DNA from: an uncultured Planctomycetia bacterium
Lineage (GTDB): Bacteria; Omnitrophota; Gorgyraeia; JABMRG01
Direction of reading: 5' to 3'
Length of the DNA: 64,000 bases
Assembly (NCBI GenBank): GCA_964634945.1
Contig: CAZWMG010000007.1
Location: forward strand, 3,488 to 67,487
Shown: one piece after another, positions 10,209 through 49,970 of the stretch
Numbering within the stretch: position 1 is the first letter of the stretch
Layout of the letters: every line of letters starts with the position of its first letter
Translations under genes and position numbers: made by a program
Notes under the pieces: model-generated
What the model was told of the DNA's origin: nothing
Seen by the model: only the letters and a program-made list of their open reading frames with translations
Databases searched by the model: none

Positions 10209-12161
10209 TCAGGGTGCGTCTATATCTGCTTTATACTCATTTATTGTATTGCGCAGGAGCCTGCAATATAGATCAAAGCCCACAGCAGCGATATATCCAT
10301 GTTGTTGAGTTCCTAGTATATTCCCCGCTCCCCTTATCTGAAGGTCTTCCATTGCTATCTTAAAACCTGAACCCAGCTCAGTAAAGCGTCCTACGGCCCT
10401 GAGCCTTCTCTTCGCGTCTCCTATAATAGGGTAATTCTTTGGTACCAGGCATATCGCGTAAGCCTTTACATTAAATCTGCCTACCCTGCCCTTAAGCTGA
10501 TAAAGATCCGCTAAACCAAATCTATCCGCGCGATTTATAATAATGGTATTCGCGTTTGGTATGTCTATGCCTGATTCAATAATAGTTGTAGAGACCAATA
10601 CATCTATCTCTCCATTTATAAACTGGAGCATTATCCTCTCAAGCTCCTTAGGAGATATCCTGCCATGCGCAACACAAATACGTACCCTCTCTCCCATAAG
10701 TGCCTTTAGCCTTGATGCGATCTTTTCTATGCCTTTAATCCTATTATTAACAAAGAAAACCTGCCCACCTCTATTAAGTTCGCGCTCTATAGCTTTTTTG
10801 ATCAAATTATCACTATATGAGCTAATAGTAGTCTTTATCGGAATCCTGTCAAGCGGCGCTGTATTGATTGATGACATATCTCTTGCGCCGGTAAGAGACA
10901 TGTATAGTGTGCGAGGTATCGGTGTAGCTGTCATTGTAAGAACATCTATGAGAAGCCTGAGCTTCTTCAGCTTCTCCTTAGCCTTTACACCAAAACGCTG
11001 TTCTTCATCTATGATAACAAGCCCTAGATCTTTAAACGCAATATCATCTGATAAAAGCCTGTGCGTTCCTATTACAATATCTACAGATCCTTCCCGTAGC
11101 TCTTTCAATACCTCTTTTTGCTCTGCCTTTGTTCTAAAACGTGAAAGCATCTGTATATTAACGGGAAACTCACGCATTCTTTGGCAGAAAGTATTGTAAT
11201 GCTGTTCAGCTAATATAGTAGTGGGTACTAATATACCTACCTGCTTATTATCCATTACAGCCTTGAATGCGGCCCTTAAAGCAACCTCTGTCTTACCGTA
11301 ACCTACATCACCACACAATAGCCTATCCATAGGCTTTGCCTTCTCCATGTCAGAGGTTACATCAAAACAAGCGCTTGCCTGATCGATCGTATCCTTGTAA
11401 GGAAAAGACGCTTCCAGCTTGTACTGCCAATCAGTATTTTTTGAGAACGCAAACCCCTTAAGCTTTGTCCTGCTTGCCTGCATCTGAAGCAACTCCATAG
11501 CGTAAGACGCGGCTATCTTTTTAGTCCTCTGCTTTAACTTCTTCCACGCATTTGTTCCCAGCTTACTTAACTTGGGGCTAGACCTATAAAAACTCAAATA
11601 TTTCTGTATAAGATTGATCTCTTCTACGGGCACATACAGCTTATCTTTATCCGCATACTCGATCAGGATATAATTTTTGTAACTGCCGTCCTTCTCCTGT
11701 ATTTTTTTTATGCCTCTATATATCCCTATACCATGATCTATATGCACAACTGAATCGCCAGAGATTATATCAACAAAATTATCTATAGGCACCTCTTCAC
11801 CAACACCATGGAATAGAGTGGACTTGGCTGAAGAATATAATGTTTTTCGCGGAAGTATTATGACCATCTGGTGGGTAGCGGTAACTTCGGCGGTAACCAG
11901 GCTAAAAGACCTTATGGTATCAATTGTATCCTGACAAAGGTCTAATCGCACAGGGGCCTCGAAACCACTGGGAAAGATATCGATAACCCCTCCCCTATGG
12001 GCAAAGTCCCCCTCCCCAGCGACAAAATCTGTTATCTTGTAGCCTAGCCTGGTCAGATCTTTAAGGAGCGGTTCCTTCTCCTGGTTCTGATGGGCATATA
12101 GTTTGATCGATTCAAGCATTGTTCGGGGACGAGTATTAGGGGACGGTCCTAAAGGGGACAC
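10209..12161 (-). CDS. mfd: Transcription-repair coupling factor Mfd, compact form. It lacks the N-terminal D1a and D3 regions and the C-terminal D7 domain.
   Basis: UvrB-homology motif RGGVIDIFPSG, the RNAP-interaction region (HIDHGIGIYRGI) and superfamily 2 translocase motifs (LLCGDVGYGKTEVALRA, DEEQRFG, TRG-like region). It is only 650 aa, against about 1150 for E. coli Mfd. The annotated ATG at 12161 lies inside the terminal inverted repeat of repeat copy A, so the true start is more likely the Met at 12119 (MLESIKLY...). Confidence 0.8.
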   Translation of the reverse strand: MSPLGPSPNTRPRTMLESIKLYAHQNQEKEPLLKDLTRLGYKITDFVAGEGDFAHRGGVIDIFPSGFEAPVRLDLCQDTIDTIRSFSLVTAEVTATHQMVIILPRKTLYSSAKSTLFHGVGEEVPIDNFVDIISGDSVVHIDHGIGIYRGIKKIQEKDGSYKNYILIEYADKDKLYVPVEEINLIQKYLSFYRSSPKLSKLGTNAWKKLKQRTKKIAASYAMELLQMQASRTKLKGFAFSKNTDWQYKLEASFPYKDTIDQASACFDVTSDMEKAKPMDRLLCGDVGYGKTEVALRAAFKAVMDNKQVGILVPTTILAEQHYNTFCQRMREFPVNIQMLSRFRTKAEQKEVLKELREGSVDIVIGTHRLLSDDIAFKDLGLVIIDEEQRFGVKAKEKLKKLRLLIDVLTMTATPIPRTLYMSLTGARDMSSINTAPLDRIPIKTTISSYSDNLIKKAIERELNRGGQVFFVNNRIKGIEKIASRLKALMGERVRICVAHGRISPKELERIMLQFINGEIDVLVSTTIIESGIDIPNANTIIINRADRFGLADLYQLKGRVGRFNVKAYAICLVPKNYPIIGDAKRRLRAVGRFTELGSGFKIAMEDLQIRGAGNILGTQQHGYIAAVGFDLYCRLLRNTINEYKADIDAP

Positions 12162-12300
12162 CCCTACGATTGGATTTTACTGTTTTTTTGCTCTTTTTAA
12201 ACAACAATATCTTGCCTTAAGTAAACATATTAGCAATACATATTCTTATAAAATCTTATAAATTTCCGTGCTTAGGGGTGTCCCCTTTAGGACCGTCCCC
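12139..12300. repeat. MITE-like intergenic element, copy A. It carries full 27-bp terminal inverted repeats: GGGGACGGTCCTAAAGGGGACACCCCT on the left and AGGGGTGTCCCCTTTAGGACCGTCCCC on the right.
   Basis: The near-identical right arm and the GGGGA(C/T)ACCCCT left arm recur at 38969..39132 and 49820..49964. Copies A and C also share internal strings (CTACGATTG..TTTTACTGTTTTT and ATTTCCGTG). Confidence 0.7.
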
Positions 12301-12317
12301 TGAATTAGTCCCCTGAA

Positions 12318-17586: not shown

Positions 17587-18411
17587 TCATCTTACCTCAC
17601 GTGCCATTATCTCTTCGATAAGACTTTCATCAACGATCTTGCTCTCTCTCATAATAAGCATCTCAAGCGCGTCATGACAAAGCATTGATATTTTCCTTGG
17701 ATAACCTTGGGTATGTTCGTATATGTGCCTTATCGCGCTATCTGTAAAAAGCTGTTCACTCTTTATGTAACCTGCCTGTTTTAACCTAAAATTGATAAGC
17801 GCCTTGGTCTCTTGTTCATCAAGTGGATTAATAATATATTTAAGATTTATCCTATCCATGAAATTTTTTATTCTTCGTATCTTTGGAAGCAGCTCTATCT
17901 GCGAGAGTATAACGAGCTGCAATAACTTATACTGATTAGTCTCGTAGTTTAAGAGTGTCCTTAATATCTCAATCTGTGTAGGGGTAAGCTTCTGCCCCTC
18001 ATCAATAAGCAAGACTATTGTTTTGTTCTCGTTAACACCTTTTTGAAACAAGTACTTCTCCAATGCGTCCTTGTAATCAAGCGTTGATCGAAATGCTGGG
18101 CTTACACCAAAGATCTTACCCAAGCTTGATAAAAACTGAAACTCAGTCTTATAGCTAGGATCAAGTATCATATGGAATATAAAATCTGACTCATCGTTAA
18201 AAAGCTGTATCAACATCCTGCTTAAGGTTGTCTTTCCTGTTCCCACATCCCCTAAAATCACATTTAACCCCCTTCGCAGACGTATGGCTATCTCTAATCT
18301 CTTTAATGCCGAGTCATGCGAAGAAGAAGGATAAAAGAACTGTGGATCAGGGCTCGTTGAAAACGGCTCTGATTGCAAATGCAATGCTTCATAATAACTC
18401 ATCTTCACCAA
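17587..18411 (-). CDS. exeA: AAA+ ATPase ExeA/GspA-like. It has only the cytoplasmic ATPase module and no peptidoglycan-binding domain.
   Basis: Walker A GDVGTGKTTL, Walker B LLIDEGQ, an ExeA-family N-terminus (ALHLQSEPFSTSPDPQFFY), and position next to gspD. Confidence 0.7.
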   Translation of the reverse strand: MVKMSYYEALHLQSEPFSTSPDPQFFYPSSSHDSALKRLEIAIRLRRGLNVILGDVGTGKTTLSRMLIQLFNDESDFIFHMILDPSYKTEFQFLSSLGKIFGVSPAFRSTLDYKDALEKYLFQKGVNENKTIVLLIDEGQKLTPTQIEILRTLLNYETNQYKLLQLVILSQIELLPKIRRIKNFMDRINLKYIINPLDEQETKALINFRLKQAGYIKSEQLFTDSAIRHIYEHTQGYPRKISMLCHDALEMLIMRESKIVDESLIEEIMAREVR

Positions 18412-18640
18412 TCCTAATGTTTACAAGTTTTCCTCTTATCTGTTCCAGAGACCTGCCCTCTTTTCGCAGGCCCCTGATGCGCTTTAGCTGCTCAACTGTT
18501 GAATCATCGAAAAATCTAAAATTCGTCTCTATGCCCCTGCTAATCTCCTTTATGAGCTCTATCTTTAGGTAAAACTTTAATGTATCTACAGAATAACCTG
18601 TTACTTGAGCAAGATCTCTTATTAAATATATATTCTTCAA
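18389..18640 (-). CDS. Small MerR-family helix-turn-helix protein, 83 aa. It has an HTH and a short coiled-coil stub but no effector domain.
   Basis: YLIRDLAQVTGYSVDTLKFYLKIELI is a typical MerR N-terminal HTH. It overlaps the exeA start by 23 nt. Confidence 0.5.
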   Translation of the reverse strand: MKNIYLIRDLAQVTGYSVDTLKFYLKIELIKEISRGIETNFRFFDDSTVEQLKRIRGLRKEGRSLEQIRGKLVNIRIGEDELL

Positions 18641-18699
18641 TTAAACCTCATTATCCGCCTACACTCTTTTTCAACTACCTATATCGTGTCCTAGTTTCA

Positions 18700-18753
18700 G
18701 CGGATTAATTCGCCCATCTTCTTGCTTTCGCAAGAAAGCAGAGGGGTTCATTA
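18700..18753 (-). repeat. Partial, inverted third copy of the GC-clamped hairpin-B module of the dual-hairpin repeat family
   Basis: The reverse complement reads TAATGAACCCCTCTGCTTTCTTGCGAAAGCAAGAAGATGGGCGAATTAA. Compare TAATGAGCCCCTATGCTTTCTTTAAGAAAGCAAGAATAGGGGTGAATTAA at 24245 and TAGTGAGCCCCTAAGTTTTCTTGCTAAAGCAAGAATAGGGGCGAATTAA at 42650. Confidence 0.55.
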
Positions 18754-18907
18754 AAATAATAAATCCAGCAGTGAGCTGGATAATTATGAGTGATCTCTAT
18801 CACTCCATAGATAGGGAGCCCACCTTCTCCCCATCTATGGAGTTAGTTTATTATATTTTTACTCTATTGTCAACTGGTTGTGAGAAAAAAACATAGAAAA
18901 ACAAGGG

Positions 18908-18935
18908 CCACTACTCCCTATATAGGGAGTAGTGG
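18908..18935 (-). terminator. Rho-independent terminator after gspM: a perfect 28-nt palindrome (CCACTACTCCCTATATAGGGAGTAGTGG) followed on the transcript by a U-rich tract
   Basis: On the minus-strand RNA the hairpin is followed by CCCUUGUUUUUCUAUGUUUUUUUC. It sits 15 nt after the gspM stop. Confidence 0.65.
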
Positions 18936-18949
18936 TTGGAAGGATTGTT

Positions 18950-23285: not shown

Positions 23286-23844
23286 AAACTTTTATCAGGC
23301 CTGTGCCTGCTTCTATCGAAATTACGATGGTTTTGTTCTCTTTGCCAACAAGGTATATCTTAGTGAAATCCGTATCACCATCAGGCGAAAAGTCTACTAC
23401 GCTATTACCTGTCTTAATTTCTATGCCACTGGGCATCCTAAAAGATCTGCCCCAGCGCTCCTTCAGCGGCTTAAAAGTTTTATTTTCTTCATCTTTTACA
23501 AAAACCCTATAAAAGCAATTTTGAGCATCTATAACAAGCCTGTAATCTCTCCTTTCAAATACCGCTCTTTCAAGACAAAATTTTGCCGTATACGCGATGT
23601 TTTTAGCAGAGGTTGTAAGTTTAAGATCCTCATAGGTTCTTCTGAAGATGGGGGTAGATAAAGCTACAAGGGCAAGAATAATTGCGGCAACCAGCATCAG
23701 CTCCAGTAGAGTAAAGGCATAATTGGATCTCGAATCTTTGGTTTCCGGTATGCGATGCTTAACTTTAGATAGACACCGAAAGCCTAACATCAAACGCCTC
23801 CTCAATAGACTACTCTTTAATAACTTCCCAGTTGACAATATCAT
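23266..23844 (-). CDS. gspH: T2SS minor pseudopilin GspH
   Basis: Prepilin motif YAFTLLELMLVAAIILALVA, 192 aa (the true start may be a later Met), directly after gspG. Confidence 0.55.
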   Translation of the reverse strand: MILSTGKLLKSSLLRRRLMLGFRCLSKVKHRIPETKDSRSNYAFTLLELMLVAAIILALVALSTPIFRRTYEDLKLTTSAKNIAYTAKFCLERAVFERRDYRLVIDAQNCFYRVFVKDEENKTFKPLKERWGRSFRMPSGIEIKTGNSVVDFSPDGDTDFTKIYLVGKENKTIVISIEAGTGLIKVYDYIEE

Positions 23845-24238
23845 CTGAGCTCTCTATCCCATCTGCTCCATATGAAAATAGATCGTAGTCGTGAAGATTA
23901 TGCGTTCCTGGAGATATATAGTTATAAGGATTGCCCCAAGGGTCTTTAGGGGTCTTTTTTATATATGGGCCTTTCCAATTAGGGGGGCTGGGCGGGGAGG
24001 GGGGCATTTTTCTCAAAGCCACAAGCCCCTGCTCAGTTGAAGGATATATTCCATTATCAAGCTCGTAAAGATCCAATGCTGTAGCAAGGTGCGCCTCTAT
24101 CTGGGCCTGTGCTGCCGCAAAACGCGCCTCCTGCGATCTACCAACAAGGCGTGGCACAACCAACGCGACAAGCACACTTATAATAATCACAACAAGCATA
24201 AGTTCTATTAAAGTAAAACCACTTTTTTTCATCTTCAT
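23810..24238 (-). CDS. gspG: T2SS major pseudopilin GspG
   Basis: MKMKKSGFTLIELMLVVIIISVLVALVVP is the canonical GspG N-terminus (G|F cleavage site, Glu+5). It has a GspG-type C-terminal domain carrying a PPSPPSPP insertion. SD AAGGAG is 6 nt upstream. Confidence 0.85.
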   Translation of the reverse strand: MKMKKSGFTLIELMLVVIIISVLVALVVPRLVGRSQEARFAAAQAQIEAHLATALDLYELDNGIYPSTEQGLVALRKMPPSPPSPPNWKGPYIKKTPKDPWGNPYNYISPGTHNLHDYDLFSYGADGIESSDDIVNWEVIKE

Positions 24239-24244
24239 CTCCTT

Positions 24245-24334
24245 AATGAGCCCCTATGCTTTCTTTAAGAAAGCAAGAATAGGGGTGAATTAACCCCCGT
24301 CGCTTTGTTTCGCAAAGCGAAACAGCGGGGGTAA
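24245..24334. repeat. Dual GC-clamped hairpin intergenic element, copy 1: hairpin B (CCCCTA...TAGGGG) and hairpin A (CCCCCG...CGGGGG). It lies between the lacI-family gene stop and the gspG start.
   Basis: About 85% identical over about 90 nt to 42650..42737. The inner stems differ but stay palindromic: TGTTTCGC/GCGAAACA here versus TGTTTAGC/GCTAAACA in copy 2. Confidence 0.65.
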
Positions 24335-24354
24335 CAACTACCCACAACTTAGAC

Positions 24355-24374
24355 CTGCCTGCCGGCAGGCAGGG
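24355..24374. repeat. Perfect 20-nt GC-rich palindrome CCTGCCTGCCGGCAGGCAGG, nested inside a 10-bp outer inverted repeat (CACAACTTAG / CTAAGTTGTG). It lies just downstream of the lacI-family gene and is a likely terminator.
   Basis: Seen directly. Related CCTGCC-N-GGCAGG palindromes occur at 32518..32536 and 55173..55191. Confidence 0.5.
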
Positions 24375-24410
24375 AGTGAAACGAACTAAGTTGTGCAGCC
24401 GAATTAGAAT

Positions 24411-25415
24411 CTATAATTTGGCGCAAGATTTTCGTTCTATAAGTTTTGCTTCCAATAAGATCTTCAAAGGTTGCTTTTTCTTGCCTGATACTATCTGGTT
24501 TAATAATTCAACGCCCATCCTTCCCATCTCCGCGATAGGCTGCCATACAGTCGTTAATGCAACAGGTGAATATGAGCATAGTGGATTATCATCGAAACCT
24601 ACAATTGATATATCATCGGGAATCTTTAATCCCTTCTTCCGAGCGACATCCATCGCCTCCATAGCCATTACATCACTTGCGCAAAATACAGCGGTGGGGG
24701 GATCTTTAAGCGCTAATAGGTGCTCCATTGCCTTCTTGGCCGGTGAACGCAGATAATGGCCTACTGTAATATAATTCGTGCTCAGCTTCAAGCCATTCGA
24801 CTTAAGAGCAGCCTTAAAGCCCTCAAGACGCTTCTTACCGGATTCCGTTGAAAGGTCCCCTGCTATCGTAGCGATATTTTTATGTCCTAATTTTACAAGA
24901 TATTCCACTATATCGATAGCCGCTTTTTCATTATTAATGGCAATAGAATTTACAGGCTCTTTTTCAAAAGAATTATTTAAGACCATGCAAGGCACTTTTC
25001 TCGCAAGAATCTTTTTGAGCTGCTGTCTATCACTATTTATGTCGGCAAAAAGTATCGCGTCTATATACTCTGGGCTTAACGCGCTGCTTGTAAGCCAATC
25101 TTCGTGCTTTTGCCTTTCGCTTATATGTATAATAATATCTATCTTGAGCCTGCTTGCCGCAAGCACTACACCTTTTATAACCTTTGTGGCATAAAAAGAG
25201 TGGAATATATCCTCAAACTGAGGAACGATAAGGCCAAAGACCTTGCCTTTTTTGCGCTTTATGGCAGGACTCACAGAGGCGTTAAGTTTCATGGACTTTA
25301 TAACATCTTCAACCTTTTTCCTCTCAAGTGACTTTACATTAGGGGCCCCTTGCATAACCCTTGAAACGACCATTGACGAAACATTTGCTTTTTTTGCGAT
25401 ATCACTTATCTTCAC
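24411..25415 (-). CDS. LacI-family transcriptional regulator, embedded between gspF and gspG
   Basis: N-terminal LacI HTH (MKISDIAKKANVSSMVVSRVMQG) and a periplasmic-binding-protein-like sugar-binding core. Confidence 0.85.
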   Translation of the reverse strand: MKISDIAKKANVSSMVVSRVMQGAPNVKSLERKKVEDVIKSMKLNASVSPAIKRKKGKVFGLIVPQFEDIFHSFYATKVIKGVVLAASRLKIDIIIHISERQKHEDWLTSSALSPEYIDAILFADINSDRQQLKKILARKVPCMVLNNSFEKEPVNSIAINNEKAAIDIVEYLVKLGHKNIATIAGDLSTESGKKRLEGFKAALKSNGLKLSTNYITVGHYLRSPAKKAMEHLLALKDPPTAVFCASDVMAMEAMDVARKKGLKIPDDISIVGFDDNPLCSYSPVALTTVWQPIAEMGRMGVELLNQIVSGKKKQPLKILLEAKLIERKSCAKL

Positions 25416-28395: not shown

Positions 28396-28444
28396 TTAAT
28401 ATAACATAAGGTATTATAAGTTGCAACTAGAATTAATCCTCTAG

Positions 28445-28485
28445 ACCGGTTCTTGAGCACGGGTACCCGTGCTCAAGAACCGGTC
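28445..28485. promoter_or_regulatory. 41-nt perfect palindrome GACCGGTTCTTGAGCACGGGTACCCGTGCTCAAGAACCGGTC. It overlaps the last codons of the methylthiotransferase gene and lies about 50 nt upstream of the gspE start.
   Basis: Perfect 20+1+20 dyad seen directly. No U-tract follows on the transcript, so it is either an operator or a very stable hairpin ahead of the gspEF operon. Confidence 0.45.
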
Positions 28486-29801
28486 TTAACTACCAACTGG
28501 CCAATGTATTTGTCAGGGCCATCGATTAACGTCCTGACATAAGTATCTGTGTAGCCTGTTAGCATACCCGTAACGCTGTCTCTTGCTGTCTCTATCAGAA
28601 CCCTCTGATCCTTATGACGCGACAATAGCTCAAACTCTTTTGCAAATTTATCAGTTAGCGACTTTAACCTCATGTGTCTACTGCTTTTTTCCTGAAATGA
28701 AACCGTATCACTCATCTCAAAGGCTCTTGTACCTTTGCGTGGGCTGTATGTAAATATGTGAACCCTCGATGGCTTAACGCGCTTTATTGTTTTTACTGTA
28801 TTATCAAAGTTCCTATCTGACTCCCCCGGAAAACCGACTATAACATCGGTAGTGATCGCTACCTCAGGAATCTTTGACCTGATAAGCTCTACCTTGTTTA
28901 TAAACTCACCCGCTGTATACCTTCGGTTCATTTTCATCAATATATCGTCATCGCCACTTTGTAGGGGTAGATGAAAATGATTACAAATTTTTTTTGATCT
29001 TCGCATTTCACCGATTAAATCTTCGGTAATATCCAGAAGTTCTATAGAACTTAAACGGATTCTGAAATCCCCATCTAAACGAGCTAATTCCCTGACAAGA
29101 TACACGAGCGTAACCTCATTTTTTAAATCCTTACCAAAATCTCCAAGGCATATCCCTGTTAATACCAATTCCCTGTAATTATTATAGATCAGAGCGCTTG
29201 CCTCTCTCAATATCTCATCTAAGGGCCTGCTCTTTGACCGCCCTCTTACATATGGTACTTTGCAATACGAGCAGAAATTATTACAACCATCTTGGGCCTT
29301 AATAAACGCCTTTGTCTGACCCTTAAAATGGGAAATTCCTTGATCCATACTCTGTTGTGCATATTGCGTATTGCTTGTCCCGAGCAGCCTGTGGTGAGAC
29401 TGTCGAGCCAAAGTCGAGGGGCGTTTTTCGTCATTGCAAATATCATGAATCCACGCGCGGCAATCTCTATCTTTTAATATCTCCCCTACATCCTGTTTGT
29501 CTCTGTTATTAAGAACCCTGATCCTGGAATCGATAGCCTTAATAGTATCAGAGTCTTTTTCAGCATAACATCCTGCCGCTATAATCTCTGCCTTAGGATT
29601 CTCTTTCATAAAGCGGCGCAATATTTCACGGGACCCTTTATCCGCCTTGGCAGTTACAGTACAGGTGTTGACAATACAGAGATCCGCTTTTTCGCTATCC
29701 GCTGCCTCTTTATAGCCAGCAAATGTCAATCTCTCCCGTATTATCTGGGCCTCATATTGGTTGACCTTGCAACCTAGTGTCTTTATCTTAAATGTAATCA
29801 T
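28473..29801 (-). CDS. MiaB/RimO-family radical SAM methylthiotransferase (MTTase)
   Basis: N-terminal MTTase domain (KTLGCKVNQYEAQ; Cys at C12, C46, C78), a radical SAM CxxxCxxC (CNNFCSYCKVP), a TRAM-like C-terminus, and an insertion of about 50 aa (AWIHDICNDEKRPSTLARQSHHRLLGTSNTQYAQQSMDQ). Confidence 0.75.
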   Translation of the reverse strand: MITFKIKTLGCKVNQYEAQIIRERLTFAGYKEAADSEKADLCIVNTCTVTAKADKGSREILRRFMKENPKAEIIAAGCYAEKDSDTIKAIDSRIRVLNNRDKQDVGEILKDRDCRAWIHDICNDEKRPSTLARQSHHRLLGTSNTQYAQQSMDQGISHFKGQTKAFIKAQDGCNNFCSYCKVPYVRGRSKSRPLDEILREASALIYNNYRELVLTGICLGDFGKDLKNEVTLVYLVRELARLDGDFRIRLSSIELLDITEDLIGEMRRSKKICNHFHLPLQSGDDDILMKMNRRYTAGEFINKVELIRSKIPEVAITTDVIVGFPGESDRNFDNTVKTIKRVKPSRVHIFTYSPRKGTRAFEMSDTVSFQEKSSRHMRLKSLTDKFAKEFELLSRHKDQRVLIETARDSVTGMLTGYTDTYVRTLIDGPDKYIGQLVVKTGS

Positions 29802-31211: not shown

Positions 31212-31243
31212 ACCATTCCTCCCCTACTTAATTTTTGCACCCT

Positions 31244-31280
31244 TTGTAACCTTTAAAATGGCGCGCCTGACAGGATTCGC
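31244..31280 (-). repeat. Partial duplicate of the tRNA-Arg 3-prime end (19 nt of the tRNA plus about 18 nt of downstream flank). It forms a roughly 37-bp direct repeat with 31422..31458, an attL/attR-like arrangement.
   Basis: CCTTTGTAACCTTTAAAATGGCGCGCCTGACAGGATT at 31244 matches GTTTGTAACCTTTAAAAATGGCGCGCCTGACAGGATT at 31422. A (TTTGTAAC)x3 tandem repeat abuts the second copy. Confidence 0.6.
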
Positions 31281-31439
31281 CTCCTACGCTCGGCGGTGCC
31301 TCGCTGTCCTCCTTCGCTTAGTAGTTTCATATATAGCTACGGAGGATAAACTCCGGTCCGCCAATATCAATTTACTAATTGCTCAACAGCTACATTATTT
31401 AACTTTTGTAACGTTTGTAACGTTTGTAACCTTTAAAAA

Positions 31440-31516
31440 TGGCGCGCCTGACAGGATTTGAACCTGTGACACCCAGTTCCGGAAACTGGTGCTCTATCCA
31501 GCTGAGCTACAGGCGC
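31440..31516 (-). tRNA. tRNA-Arg (anticodon CCG) with an encoded CCA end
   Basis: Cloverleaf read by hand: GCGCCUG-UA-GCUC-AGCUGGAUA-GAGC-A-CCAGU-UUCCGGA-ACUGG-GUGUC-ACAGG-UUCAAAU-CCUGU-CAGGCGC-G-CCA. Confidence 0.85.
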
Positions 31517-31578
31517 GCATAAATGCATTATAAAACTGACGAACTGTACTAAACGCTGCCCTATACCAGAATTTGCTT

Positions 31579-31593
31579 CCCGCCGTAGGCGGG
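31579..31593 (-). terminator. Small GC hairpin (CCCGCC-GTAG-GCGGG) downstream of doc, a possible terminator. A G8 homopolymer lies just beyond it.
   Basis: Seen directly. Only a weak U-tract follows on the transcript. Confidence 0.3.
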
Positions 31594-31626
31594 CATACGC
31601 TACGGCATGGGGGGGGGTAGAGCTAC

Positions 31627-38920: not shown

Positions 38921-38968
38921 GATAATATATTATATCACTAAGATAATGCTTTTCAAGACGAAAAAACA

Positions 38969-39132
38969 GGGGACACCCCTGAGTACGCTATTACTCTCTT
39001 TTTTTACATTTTTGACGCGTCTATTTATGAGGCTCCTAAATTTCGATTTTTTATTCCTAATAGATGTACATTAAAAATTCGTAAATTCTTGCATTATTTA
39101 TGCTCAGGGGTGTCCCCTTTAGGACCGTCCCC
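38969..39132. repeat. MITE-like intergenic element, copy B: left arm GGGGACACCCCT, right arm AGGGGTGTCCCCTTTAGGACCGTCCCC, with a divergent AT-rich core
   Basis: Same arms as 12139..12300 and 49820..49964. It lies between the radical SAM gene start and the upstream gene stop. Confidence 0.65.
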
Positions 39133-41606: not shown

Positions 41607-42014
41607 CTAATCGGTTGTCTGAGTGGTAGCAATGTTTACCTGCTGGACGCCTTCCTGTCTGCAGATATCCCAAACTACTACAATACGCCCCAGAGAAGCT
41701 TTTCTATCTGATTTTATAAGAACCGGAAGCCTGGCAGATGCTATACCCTTTAACAGAGAGGATAGCTCTTTGATAGTAACTAGTTTCTGCTTGTAATATA
41801 TGAGGTTTTCCGCCGTGATGCTGATTACCGCGTTCTCCTCACTTAACATCTCTGATGTTATAGCACGGGGAAGATTAACCTTTATTCCTGGTTGAAAAAT
41901 AAAACTTGATGTAAGCATAAAGAATATAAGTAACAAAAAAACTACATCTATCAGCGGTGCTATATCTATAGTGCGAAGGGTTCTTTCTAATTTAAGGTGT
42001 CTTTTAAGCCTCAT
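41607..42014 (-). CDS. exbD: Biopolymer transport protein ExbD/TolR
   Basis: 135 aa. IDIAPLIDVVFLLLIFFMLTSSF is the typical ExbD TM segment. Confidence 0.85.
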   Translation of the reverse strand: MRLKRHLKLERTLRTIDIAPLIDVVFLLLIFFMLTSSFIFQPGIKVNLPRAITSEMLSEENAVISITAENLIYYKQKLVTIKELSSLLKGIASARLPVLIKSDRKASLGRIVVVWDICRQEGVQQVNIATTQTTD

Positions 42015-42636
42015 AATCTTTGCCTCTTTGCGTAAGTATGTTTATCAGATCCGTAGAACTTCTCTCCATATCAAGAACCAGGCTGTTAACCCTGCTTACC
42101 AGATAGTTATACGCTACATATACAGGGATAGCAACCGCAAGTCCTGCCACTGTTGTTATAAGCGCCGCCCATATGCCGCCTGCCAGGTCACCCGGTGAAA
42201 CAGGATTTAGTGAGGTCGATTTCTGCTGTATAACCTGAAAACACCCGACCATGCCGACAACTGTTCCAAGAAGGCCTAATAATGGTGAGATATGCGCAAC
42301 GGTAGCAAGAGCCGTGAGGTTCTTTTCCATTCTTGGTACTTCATATAACCCTGCCTCCTCTATAGCTTCTTTTATTTCAGGCTTTGGGCGATCGTGCTTT
42401 AGAATACCTGCCTTCAGGATATGCGCTATAGGACCAGGGGTCTTATCGCACATCTCAATAGCATCCATAATCTTGTTGCGGCGCAAGATATTAGCGATCT
42501 CATCCATAAATTTGCGCGTATCTATCTTTGCCCTATGAAGATGATAAATCTTTTCTATGGCAATAGCCAGGGCGATGATAGAACATAAGATTATCGGATA
42601 CATTACCGCCCCGCCTTTTACAATCATACTAAACAT
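42004..42636 (-). CDS. exbB: MotA/TolQ/ExbB proton-channel protein
   Basis: 210 aa with 3 TM helices and the conserved TolQ/ExbB core (ALATVAHISPLLGLLGTVVGM). Confidence 0.85.
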   Translation of the reverse strand: MFSMIVKGGAVMYPIILCSIIALAIAIEKIYHLHRAKIDTRKFMDEIANILRRNKIMDAIEMCDKTPGPIAHILKAGILKHDRPKPEIKEAIEEAGLYEVPRMEKNLTALATVAHISPLLGLLGTVVGMVGCFQVIQQKSTSLNPVSPGDLAGGIWAALITTVAGLAVAIPVYVAYNYLVSRVNSLVLDMERSSTDLINILTQRGKDYEA

Positions 42637-42649
42637 AAAACGCCTCCTT

Positions 42650-42737
42650 TAGTGAGCCCCTAAGTTTTCTTGCTAAAGCAAGAATAGGGGCGAATTAACC
42701 CCCGCGCCTTGTTTAGCTTTGCTAAACAGCGGGGGTA
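42650..42737. repeat. Dual GC-clamped hairpin intergenic element, copy 2. It lies between the TPR-protein stop and the exbB start.
   Basis: See copy 1 at 24245..24334. Hairpin A ends 17 nt after the TPR gene stop. Hairpin B ends 8 nt before the exbB SD (AAAGGAGG). Confidence 0.65.
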
Positions 42738-42751
42738 AGTTCAATTATATA

Positions 42752-48094: not shown

Positions 48095-48194
48095 CTCTTC
48101 TCACATAACAGGAAACCCCTTCTCGCAATAAGCCGTTTAAAGCATTCTGCTAAAAGGGGTTCTCTGTTTCAAATTAATTACTATCTATTAAAAT

Positions 48195-48299
48195 TTATTT
48201 CTTCTTCTTCTTTTTAGCCTTTTTCTTTGCTACCTTTTTCTTTGCTACCTTTTTCTTTGCTACCTTTTTCTTTTTCTTTGCCTTTTTCTTTGCTGCCAT
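48195..48299 (-). CDS. Very small lysine-rich peptide, 34 aa: MAAKKKAKKKKKVAKKKVAKKKVAKKKAKKKKKK
   Basis: ATG at 48299 with a GGAGGGG SD 6 nt upstream. It is a (KKKVA)n histone-H1-like tail-only protein, too short for the ORF track. Confidence 0.45.
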   Translation of the reverse strand: MAAKKKAKKKKKVAKKKVAKKKVAKKKAKKKKKK

Positions 48300-48343
48300 G
48301 TTTCCCCTCCTTTTTTAGTAAAGAATTTAATCTTTACACGCTA

Positions 48344-48691
48344 CTATCTCTTCTTCTTTGCCTTCTTCTTCGCAACCTTCTTCTTTGCCTTCTTCTTCGC
48401 AACCTTCTTCTTTGCCTTCTTCTTGGCTACTTTCTTCTTAGCAACTTTCTTCTTGGCTACTTTCTTCTTCTTGCCGCGAGCCATCTTTGCCATTGAAACG
48501 TCGCCCTGCTTATCTATGAAATAGAGATACCCCTTTTCCCTTACGATACCGGATTTCACAACTACCTTAGGGCCACCGCCTTTCTTCTTACCACGAGCCA
48601 TCTTTGCCATTGAAACATTACCTTTTTTATCCAAATAATAAAGATAGCCTTTTTCTCTCTTAATTTTGCATTTCAAAACTTTTGTTGCCAT
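48344..48691 (-). CDS. Lysine-rich basic protein with two tandem copies of an uncharacterised domain of about 35 aa, followed by a KKKVA-repeat histone-H1-like tail
   Basis: Domain 1 is KCKIKREKGYLYYLDKKGNVSMAKMARGKKKGG. Domain 2 is KSGIVREKGYLYFIDKQGDVSMAKMARGKKKK. The tail is VAKKKVAKKKVAKKKAKKKVAKKK... A GGAGGTG SD lies upstream. Confidence 0.6.
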   Translation of the reverse strand: MATKVLKCKIKREKGYLYYLDKKGNVSMAKMARGKKKGGGPKVVVKSGIVREKGYLYFIDKQGDVSMAKMARGKKKKVAKKKVAKKKVAKKKAKKKVAKKKAKKKVAKKKAKKKR

Positions 48692-49794: not shown

Positions 49795-49819
49795 GATTCT
49801 CTCATTAGTGTTCTTGTAA

Positions 49820-49964
49820 GGGGATACCCCTACGATTGAGTTTTTACTGTTTTTAGTTTTTTTTGATAACCATATCTTGCTTTATGCAAATACATTAAAG
49901 ATGTATTTTTTGTAAAATTTTATCAATTTCCGTGAGTAGGGGTGTCCCCTTTAGGACCGTCCCC
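49820..49964. repeat. MITE-like intergenic element, copy C: left arm GGGGATACCCCT, right arm AGGGGTGTCCCCTTTAGGACCGTCCCC
   Basis: Shares the arms with copies A and B, and the internal strings CTACGATTGAGTTTTTACTGTTTTT and ATTTCCGTG with copy A. It lies between the nadA stop and the nadX start. Confidence 0.7.
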
Positions 49965-49970
49965 TTCATA

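Follow-up and report, generated by a model that had tools for sequence, protein, structure and literature searches.

The gspG and exbB genes in the 64,000-nucleotide stretch of DNA analyzed here (the window) are preceded by look-alike intergenic segments, each containing two GC-clamped hairpins. The initial annotation of these segments considered that they could represent a REP/BIME-like structural repeat, a binding site for a dimeric regulator, or a 5'-UTR element coordinating type II secretion (T2SS) with the Exb system. We therefore asked what kind of element this is and why it is shared by the two leaders.

Copies of the element in the window

Copy 1 of the element (24243-24334) is located upstream of gspG and copy 2 (42649-42738) upstream of exbB, in agreement with the initial annotation. 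The likeness of the two segments was confirmed, while the identity of about 85% given for them was not, since 74 of 91 aligned columns (81%) are identical. The gene identities were supported by Pfam matches for GspG (23810-24238; T2SSG), ExbB (42004-42636; MotA_ExbB), which is followed by ExbD and TonB, a MerR-family protein (18389-18640; MerR_1), and a LacI-family protein (24411-25415; LacI). All four are encoded on the minus strand, which carries almost every gene in the window. Because gspG, exbB, and merR are on the minus strand, the layout described initially has correct coordinates but, as read on the plus strand, is antisense to the mRNAs.

On the plus strand, the two full copies have the order TTAATGAG-hairpin B-YGAATTAA-hairpin A-TAA. 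In copy 1, the left frame motif TTAATGAG (24243..24250) is followed by hairpin B (24251..24285), which has a CCCCTA clamp, an 8-bp inner stem (TGCTTTCT/AGAAAGCA), and a 4-nt bulge. Next are the linker/frame motif TGAATTAA (24286..24293; TTAATTCA in the mRNA sense) and hairpin A (24294..24331), in which a CCCCCG...CGGGGG clamp surrounds the overlapping inner palindromes CGCTTTG/CAAAGCG and TGTTTCGC/GCGAAACA. Hairpin B had been placed 8-12 nt before the SD; its right-hand frame in the mRNA sense, CTCATTAA, overlaps the gspG SD AAGGAG by 2 nt. In copy 2, also on the plus strand, the left frame motif TTAGTGAG (42649..42656) adjoins the exbB SD AGGAGG at 42643-42648, hairpin B (42657..42690) has the same clamp as in copy 1 around an inner stem in another register (TTCTTGC/GCAAGAA), and the linker/frame motif CGAATTAA (42691..42698) leads into hairpin A (42699..42735; inner stem TGTTTAGC/GCTAAACA, loop TTT). 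The lacI-gspG spacer contains a third hairpin at 24343..24395 on the plus strand (CACAACTTAG..CCTGCCTGCCGGCAGGCAGG..CTAAGTTGTG, then the frame-like motif CGAATTAG); its core palindrome CCTGCCTGCCGGCAGGCAGG is dispersed in relatives and present at other loci in lineages L059 and L080.

Copy 3 (18647..18757, minus strand) is located in the gspM-merR spacer and is inverted relative to copies 1 and 2. Its order on the minus strand is TTAATGAA, hairpin B (18746..18713), CGAATTAA (18712..18705), a second hairpin TCCGCTG...GGCGGA (18704..18654), and TAATGAG. The second hairpin is unlike copies 1 and 2 in sequence. A covariance model (CM) built from copies 1 and 2 aligned over its whole length with 18647-18757 on the opposite strand (48.7 bits, E 1e-9); thus, this copy is inverted, as initially described, but is not restricted to hairpin B.

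A 24-nt degenerate core matched only copies 1 and 2 and 18705-18728 on the opposite strand, with 0 matches expected based on 100 shuffles. The whole element was found three times in the 64-kb window, and no further copy was present in 3.4 kb beyond the window, to which the sequence was extended via exact-protein look-ups. With lengths of 34-38 nt and locations in the spacers 24239-24410, 42637-42751, and 18641-18949, the hairpins are extragenic imperfect palindromes within the 20-40 bp described for REPs.

Pairing within the hairpins and frames

In the mRNA sense, the fold energies of copies 1 and 2 were -42.6 and -47.3 kcal/mol, respectively (z -4.4 and -5.3). The two clamped hairpins predicted per copy, as in the initial annotation, form on either strand and far better than in shuffled sequences. 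An intrinsic-terminator scan called neither hairpin: the sequences after hairpins A and B are TTAATTC and CTCATTAA, respectively, neither of which is a proper U-tract, consistent with the reported lack of a U-tail on hairpin B. The scan flagged only an alternative pairing of the hairpin A G-clamp with the hairpin B C-clamp. We discarded an attenuator based on this pairing, because the hairpins of relatives cannot form it.

Hairpin A differs between copies 1 and 2 by six substitutions and one indel, and no pair is broken. The changes comprise one double-sided C:G to A:T change, which is the compensatory pair noted initially, three substitutions that complement the loop (AAA versus TTT), and, in the bulge, one substitution as well as the indel. 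When 7 or 5 random substitutions were simulated, none of the 14 hairpin A pairs was lost in 0.3% or 1.2% of trials, respectively. The earlier argument for selection on secondary structure is supported to the extent that pairing is kept beyond chance (p 0.003-0.01); it did not separate constraint on RNA from constraint on DNA. As far as two or three palindromic DNA copies can tell, RNA selection, DNA-hairpin selection, and templated palindrome correction would fit alike, and no strand or molecule can be assigned to the constraint because perfect Watson-Crick stems give no G.U asymmetry.

The inner stem of hairpin B, which had been described as rebuilt from different bases, is indeed paired in both copies, but the difference is better called a register shift. 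Hairpins A and B each consist of two overlapping palindromes. The ancestral-like hairpin B of copy 3 holds both GCTTTC/GAAAGC and TTCTTGC/GCAAGAA; copy 1 retained and extended the former, and copy 2 retained the latter. That the two copies kept different registers explains the seemingly rebuilt stem. Compared in direct orientation, which near-perfect palindromes make ambiguous, hairpins A and B are 60% alike and look like diverged tandem units. The 8-nt frames pair by TTAAT/ATTAA and tandem G.A/A.G in the plus-strand reading only, while the complement would give U.C/C.U. The non-Watson-Crick GA/GA of the frame is invariant in all members.

Framed hairpins in related lineages

The names of ExbB and GspG homologues place the organism in Candidatus Omnitrophota, and these homologues also led to its close relatives. 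The sequence from relatives amounted to ~0.5 Mb, partly redundant, and was collected by look-ups centered on ExbB and GspG, so that the list of loci is biased toward T2SS and Exb. In lineages L068 (98% GspG identity), L080, and L085 (91% for both), the gspG spacer contains a framed element at the same site, with a window-type frame and other hairpins (GTTA-CCCCGATACC..GGGTACGGGG-TTAATTCG-CACAGTGACTTAT..ATAAGTCACGTG-CTCATTAAGGAG). The frame TTA-hairpin-TTAATTCG-hairpin-CTCATTAA-GGAG is common to the window and these three lineages. The DNA of gspG and lacI is 95-96% identical between the window and L068 (lacI 96%), with a third-position identity of 0.88-0.92, yet both gspG hairpins in the window are unrelated to those of L068 despite the near-identical flanks. 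This difference argues that the gspG hairpins were exchanged in a discrete recent event and not by drift. The ancestral gspG hairpin B with its frame is identical at 55/55 positions between L080 and L085, and at 53/55 positions relative to L068, while third-codon identity in the flanking genes of these lineages is only 0.57-0.69. Judged from these alignments, conservation of the ancestral hairpin B is far beyond neutral expectation and more than a selfish decaying repeat needs, and it suggests a host-level or enzyme-recognition constraint. In L085, the TTAATTCG linker contains a mini-hairpin module of ~30 nt, which in L080 is found ~90 nt upstream. We note that the LacI-family gene (24411-25415 in the window) keeps its position between gspF and gspG in the four lineages with a complete gspF-gspG interval, and that L095 appears to carry lacI there too, in a stretch interrupted by masked bases; a LacI-family regulator is an unusual member for a type II secretion operon.

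At merR, lineage L095 (83% GspG identity) has a complete framed element at the site and in the orientation of copy 3. The first stem of the L095 element, ACGTAACTTAT, corresponds to the ancestral gspG hairpin, and the second hairpin is of the CCCCGTACC...GGTATCGGGG type. L085 retains a remnant, and in L068 and L080 the segment between the AATGAG repeats is absent. The comparison of L085 and L095 supports that the merR site is old and that its hairpin B was overwritten with the window type. A fresh insertion of copy 3 with a TAATGA duplication, which the comparison with L068 had suggested, was rejected because L085 and L095 show the ancestral site. No consistent MITE target-site duplication was found among the members; the AATGAG repeats at merR represent the ancestral site, and L068 and L080 carry deletions.

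Two other structures were observed in the gspM-merR spacer. The leader of merR-AAA-secretin starts with a 16-bp hairpin (CTCCATAGATGGGGAG-AAGGTGGG-CTCCCTATCTATGGAG; 18790-18829, minus-strand sense) just downstream of a promoter-like site at 18873..18845. This hairpin is kept in five lineages with double-sided compensatory changes in four pairs, 98.8% of cells paired, and sense-strand G.U in two lineages; in its loop, the AGGTGGG core is invariant and only the first loop base varies (A or T). Covariation at this level was reached in only 2 of 500 shuffles, and as a candidate for a conserved cis-regulatory RNA or operator this hairpin is better than the dual-hairpin element. A canonical intrinsic terminator (18908-18935, minus strand) with a 12-bp stem (CCACTACTCCCT/AGGGAGTAGTGG) and a T-run follows gspM and has compensatory changes in relatives; thus, the organism uses classical terminators, unlike the hairpins of the element.

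The exbB element is missing in every relative examined (L078, L052-L061, and L062-L064). The TPR-exbB spacer is 37 nt and hairpin-free in lineages with 90% ExbB identity, while in L078 (98% identical ExbB) its 95 nt are unrelated in sequence and contain another hairpin, which is AT-rich. Hence, copy 2 was gained in the window lineage.

Additional members were found at other loci. In L059, the MiaB-gspE spacer upstream of gspE contains two framed members in opposite orientation, which form a 241-nt composite with 23-nt terminal inverted repeats (arms 87% complementary); the termini of the window copies are only the 8-nt frames, pairing by TTAAT/ATTAA and tandem G.A. In the L059 frames (TAAATGAG/CGAATTTA), TTAAT/ATTAA is changed to TAAAT/ATTTA, a double-sided change that keeps the frame pairing. 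The composite is absent in L053, which has an ExbB identical to that of L059 and nearly identical flanks, and ~28 nt of other sequence is present instead. Thus, presence/absence polymorphism between close relatives, a property of MITEs, is observed for the exbB copy as well as for L059 versus L053. The CM from copies 1 and 2 recovered the gspG and merR members of relatives at 19-22 bits and one more member in the Fic-tRNA spacer of L080 (TTAGTGAG-GCCACAATTTACA...-CAAACTAA-CCCTGAACC...GGTACAGGG); of the hairpin at the latter locus, the window retains only the 3' half, joined to the CCGCCTACGGCGG mini-hairpin. A CM match at 41829-41923 (20 bits) was dismissed as spurious, as it lies inside exbD and has no frame motifs. 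A frame-plus-hairpin scan gave 3 real matches in the window versus 1 match in 10 shuffled windows, and also returned the gspG copies of relatives and two members in L059.

Altogether, members have one or two GC-clamped stem-loops of ~35-55 nt with conserved 8-nt motifs between them, in the one-strand order TWAATGAG-hairpin-CGAATTWA-hairpin-TAA. The frame TWAATGAG-hairpin-CGAATTWA-hairpin was found at about ten sites in six lineages, an arrangement of units and linker motifs as in BIMEs. Members occur in both orientations relative to transcription and in unrelated spacers (tRNA, MiaB-gspE). Logan contigs of the same strain (L065-L067, L082, and L083) begin inside the element; these breaks are compatible with a repeat or with population heterogeneity and are not decisive, the shared exact words being <31 nt.

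Rfam 15 at the gathering threshold identified only tRNA, and permissive scans gave sub-threshold noise; the Rfam comparison proposed in the initial annotation thus returned no family for the element. In collections without the source genome, the core pattern GCAAGAANANGGGNGAATTAA had 17 genome and 31 metagenome matches, all of them single chance matches with no flanking element, and three scans of viral contigs gave no match. No transposase domain was detected among the window proteins. A literature search found no description of such repeats in the phylum Omnitrophota.

The window contains several other repeats. A second, unrelated family is present at 12138-12301, ~38960-39132, and 49818-49965, with ~30-nt terminal inverted repeats (AGGGGACGGTCCTAAAGGGGACACCCCTAC) around ~100-130 nt of AT-rich sequence. 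The spacer between NadA and aspartate dehydrogenase (AspDH) is 176 nt with a repeat of this second family versus 18 nt in L052 and L062, which supports a MITE-like insertion and a general gain of repeats in the window genome. The last ~35 nt (AATCCTGTCAGGCGCGCCATTTTAAAGGTTACAAA) of a tRNA gene at 31443-31516 (window 31212-31626) recur ~190 nt downstream with GTTACAAAC tandem repeats between, which looks like an att-type scar of a small integrated element; in L080, the tRNA 5' end (GCGCCTGTAGCT) is duplicated upstream of a framed hairpin element. A 40-nt perfect palindrome (ACCGGTTCTTGAGCACGGGTACCCGTGCTCAAGAACCGGT) across the 3' end of a MiaB-like gene (window 28396-28500), followed by CTAGAATTAATCCTCTAG containing GAATTAA, may be a degenerate relative of the hairpin family (CM 13 bits, weak). 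At 48192-48691, tandem 12-15-nt repeats encode lysine/alanine-rich tails (KKAKKK...), and a 99-nt N-terminal block that is 75% identical is common to two adjacent small ORFs with no Pfam match; these ORFs may encode paralogous histone-like or nucleoid proteins.

Nature of the element and likeness to known systems

These data support that the element is probably a lineage-specific variant of small mosaic palindromic intergenic repeats in one Candidatus Omnitrophota clade. We read the repeat family from its sequences as new and as behaving like REP/BIME or MITE elements. Across the alignments, the motifs are fixed and the hairpin interiors are interchangeable modules that were nested, swapped, and deleted between lineages, and members were gained, lost, nested, and overwritten between close relatives. 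Moreover, copies within a genome are more alike than copies at orthologous sites of a sister genome, i.e., they display concerted evolution as in REP/REPIN families. Among the possibilities raised initially, the REP/BIME-like repeat is therefore supported by the absence of the exbB copy in relatives, the two orientations, the unrelated spacers, the strain polymorphism, and the module swaps. By contrast, a shared leader coordinating T2SS and Exb fails because only one lineage shows the sharing, the merR copy has the opposite orientation, non-envelope loci also carry members, and Rfam has no match. The sharing between gspG and exbB is a by-product of repeat spread in the window lineage and not a regulon signal.

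The repeat would have spread at the DNA level by a trans-acting enzyme and/or by gene conversion between shared frames. The copies are probably transcribed inside polycistronic mRNAs, because almost all genes point the same way and the spacers leave no room for independent promoters. In the mRNA, they would form stable stem-loops around the AU-rich single-stranded linker UUAAUUC, a geometry that could provide a decay barrier or a processing site and in this way uncouple gspG and exbB message abundance from that of the upstream message.

Points against a repeat are that no transposase was detected in the window, that no clean target-site duplication was seen, that framed hairpins persist at the same two T2SS leaders in several lineages, and that the ancestral hairpin B is so strongly conserved. 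Another oddity is the presence of the same replacement hairpin at three window leaders (gspG, exbB, and merR). Recognition by a hairpin-specific enzyme, as in REP-RAYT pairs, would most simply account for the conserved hairpin B, the invariant GA/GA, and the triple replacement. The same observations are also consistent with a dedicated cis-regulatory structure (RNA or DNA) of type II secretion leaders, in which a trans-acting factor reads the hairpin; in the window lineage, the hairpin that is read would have undergone concerted replacement at gspG and merR-gspD and would have been added to exbB. In favor of this reading, four lineages have framed hairpins before gspG and at least three have them before merR, the ancestral hairpin B shows no difference between L080 and L085 at 57-69% third-codon identity, all 14 hairpin A pairs survived the six substitutions and the indel, and one new hairpin is found at all three window sites. 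We nevertheless consider such a structure unlikely: the elements at merR and gspG point in opposite directions relative to the mRNA, a tRNA spacer and a strain-variable composite before gspE also hold members, the exbB element is missing in every relative, there is no Rfam family, and no candidate for a co-varying binding protein was found, the adjacent LacI-like gene being 96% identical where the hairpins differ completely. A more specific version, to which we assign a low probability, is that framed hairpins are "address labels" for a protein that recognizes them, either a regulator or a domesticated Y1-type nuclease, and that controls type II secretion leaders; the window lineage would have exchanged the label at gspG and merR-gspD in concert and carried it over to exbB-exbD-tonB. 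If true, a small envelope regulon would have been rewired by cassette swapping inside a fixed 8-nt frame with conserved tandem G.A.

Ordinary transcription punctuation, in which hairpin A would terminate or attenuate transcription of the upstream gene, hairpin B would be a 5' stabilizing stem-loop of the downstream mRNA, and the copies would arise from a single local duplication, would fit the co-directional genes flanking both full copies, the GC-clamped and strongly stable stems, and the U-containing tail UUAAUUC after hairpin A. It is improbable given that hairpin A has no proper U-tract and was not called as a terminator, that the alternative 2:3 clamp pairing is not kept in relatives, that a canonical T-run terminator exists elsewhere in the cluster (18908-18935), and that a one-off duplication leaves the framed members of other lineages and loci unexplained. 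A palindromic operator for the neighboring LacI-family or MerR-family regulator, also among the initial proposals, is very improbable. The palindromes adjoin regulator genes, and the hairpin A interior GTTTCGC-N3-GCGAAAC has what we take to be a loose likeness to LacI/Cra-type half-sites. However, LacI-family operators have a central CG, while the hairpin A palindrome has an odd 3-nt center; the regulator is conserved where the hairpins were replaced (lacI is 96% identical to that of the closest relative, in which the hairpins are unrelated); the exbB copy is far from either regulator; and stems of 13-14 bp with bulges are unlike operators. An invertible promoter segment, an integron attC site, and a LacI operator were dropped on size, motif, and conservation.

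Look-alike hairpins before two operons in these compact uncultivated genomes are no proof of a shared riboregulator until orthologous spacers have been compared. The analysis describes a REP/BIME-like system of mosaic repeats from Omnitrophota; its design, with fixed frames and swappable hairpins, is unusual. In practical terms, repeats of this kind interrupt assemblies of short reads and serve as markers of strain-level variation, and they may modulate how strongly the major pseudopilin is expressed.

REP, BIME, and REPIN elements of Proteobacteria are extragenic GC-rich imperfect palindromes of 20-40 bp, mostly between co-directional genes (PMC2817692, PMC3116915, PMC3733652). The family described here resembles them in forming mosaics with conserved linker motifs, in being alike within a genome and different between relatives, in its long persistence at orthologous sites, and in the plausible transcription into RNA hairpins. 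One end of a REP carries a conserved, unpaired tag, GTAG or CGTC (PMC3733652). This tag is absent as a terminus here, where the first bases of all members are CCCC, CCCCCG, CACAG, or TCC and the flanking motifs are TWAATGAG/CGAATTWA; CGTC is found only inside copy 1 (24298-24301), with CGCG in copy 2. The element is not a formal REP, given that the tag is absent and that the window encodes no transposase. REPs also have a high copy number, usually >100 per genome (PMC2817692), whereas the density seen here is low, with 3 copies in 64 kb. REPs flank a cognate RAYT (Y1 transposase) gene, and no RAYT gene was identified among the window proteins. In BIMEs, the units alternate regularly in orientation; here, the L059 composite holds two units in opposite orientation, and the near-perfect palindromes leave the relative orientation of hairpins A and B ambiguous. 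Further differences are the host, which belongs to Omnitrophota, and the swapping of the whole hairpin interior while the frame stays.

Correia elements (CREE) of Neisseria and bacterial MITEs are non-coding inserts with terminal inverted repeats that are located just upstream of genes and co-transcribed with them, and their hairpins can alter mRNA processing; CREE duplicate a TA target site (PMC2649163, PMC2229807, PMC10969869). Similarly, the members described here are non-coding inserts of ~100-250 nt with strain-variable presence that lie just upstream of genes and are probably co-transcribed, and the L059 composite, 241 nt long and bounded by 23-nt terminal inverted repeats, has a CREE/MITE-like shape. 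Unlike CREE, they have no clear target-site duplication, contain exchangeable sub-hairpins, and have no known parent insertion sequence; in the window copies, the terminal repeats span only 8 nt and have a consistent asymmetry, with GA facing GA instead of TC.

A third likeness is to intercistronic stem-loops and processing sites, such as the malE-malF REP and papB-papA, through which differences in mRNA stability arise. To our knowledge, these classical sites are not dispersed families with swapped hairpins. As in these systems, two stable hairpins flank a short AU-rich linker directly before a high-expression gene, here that of the major pseudopilin, for which a corresponding function is predicted.
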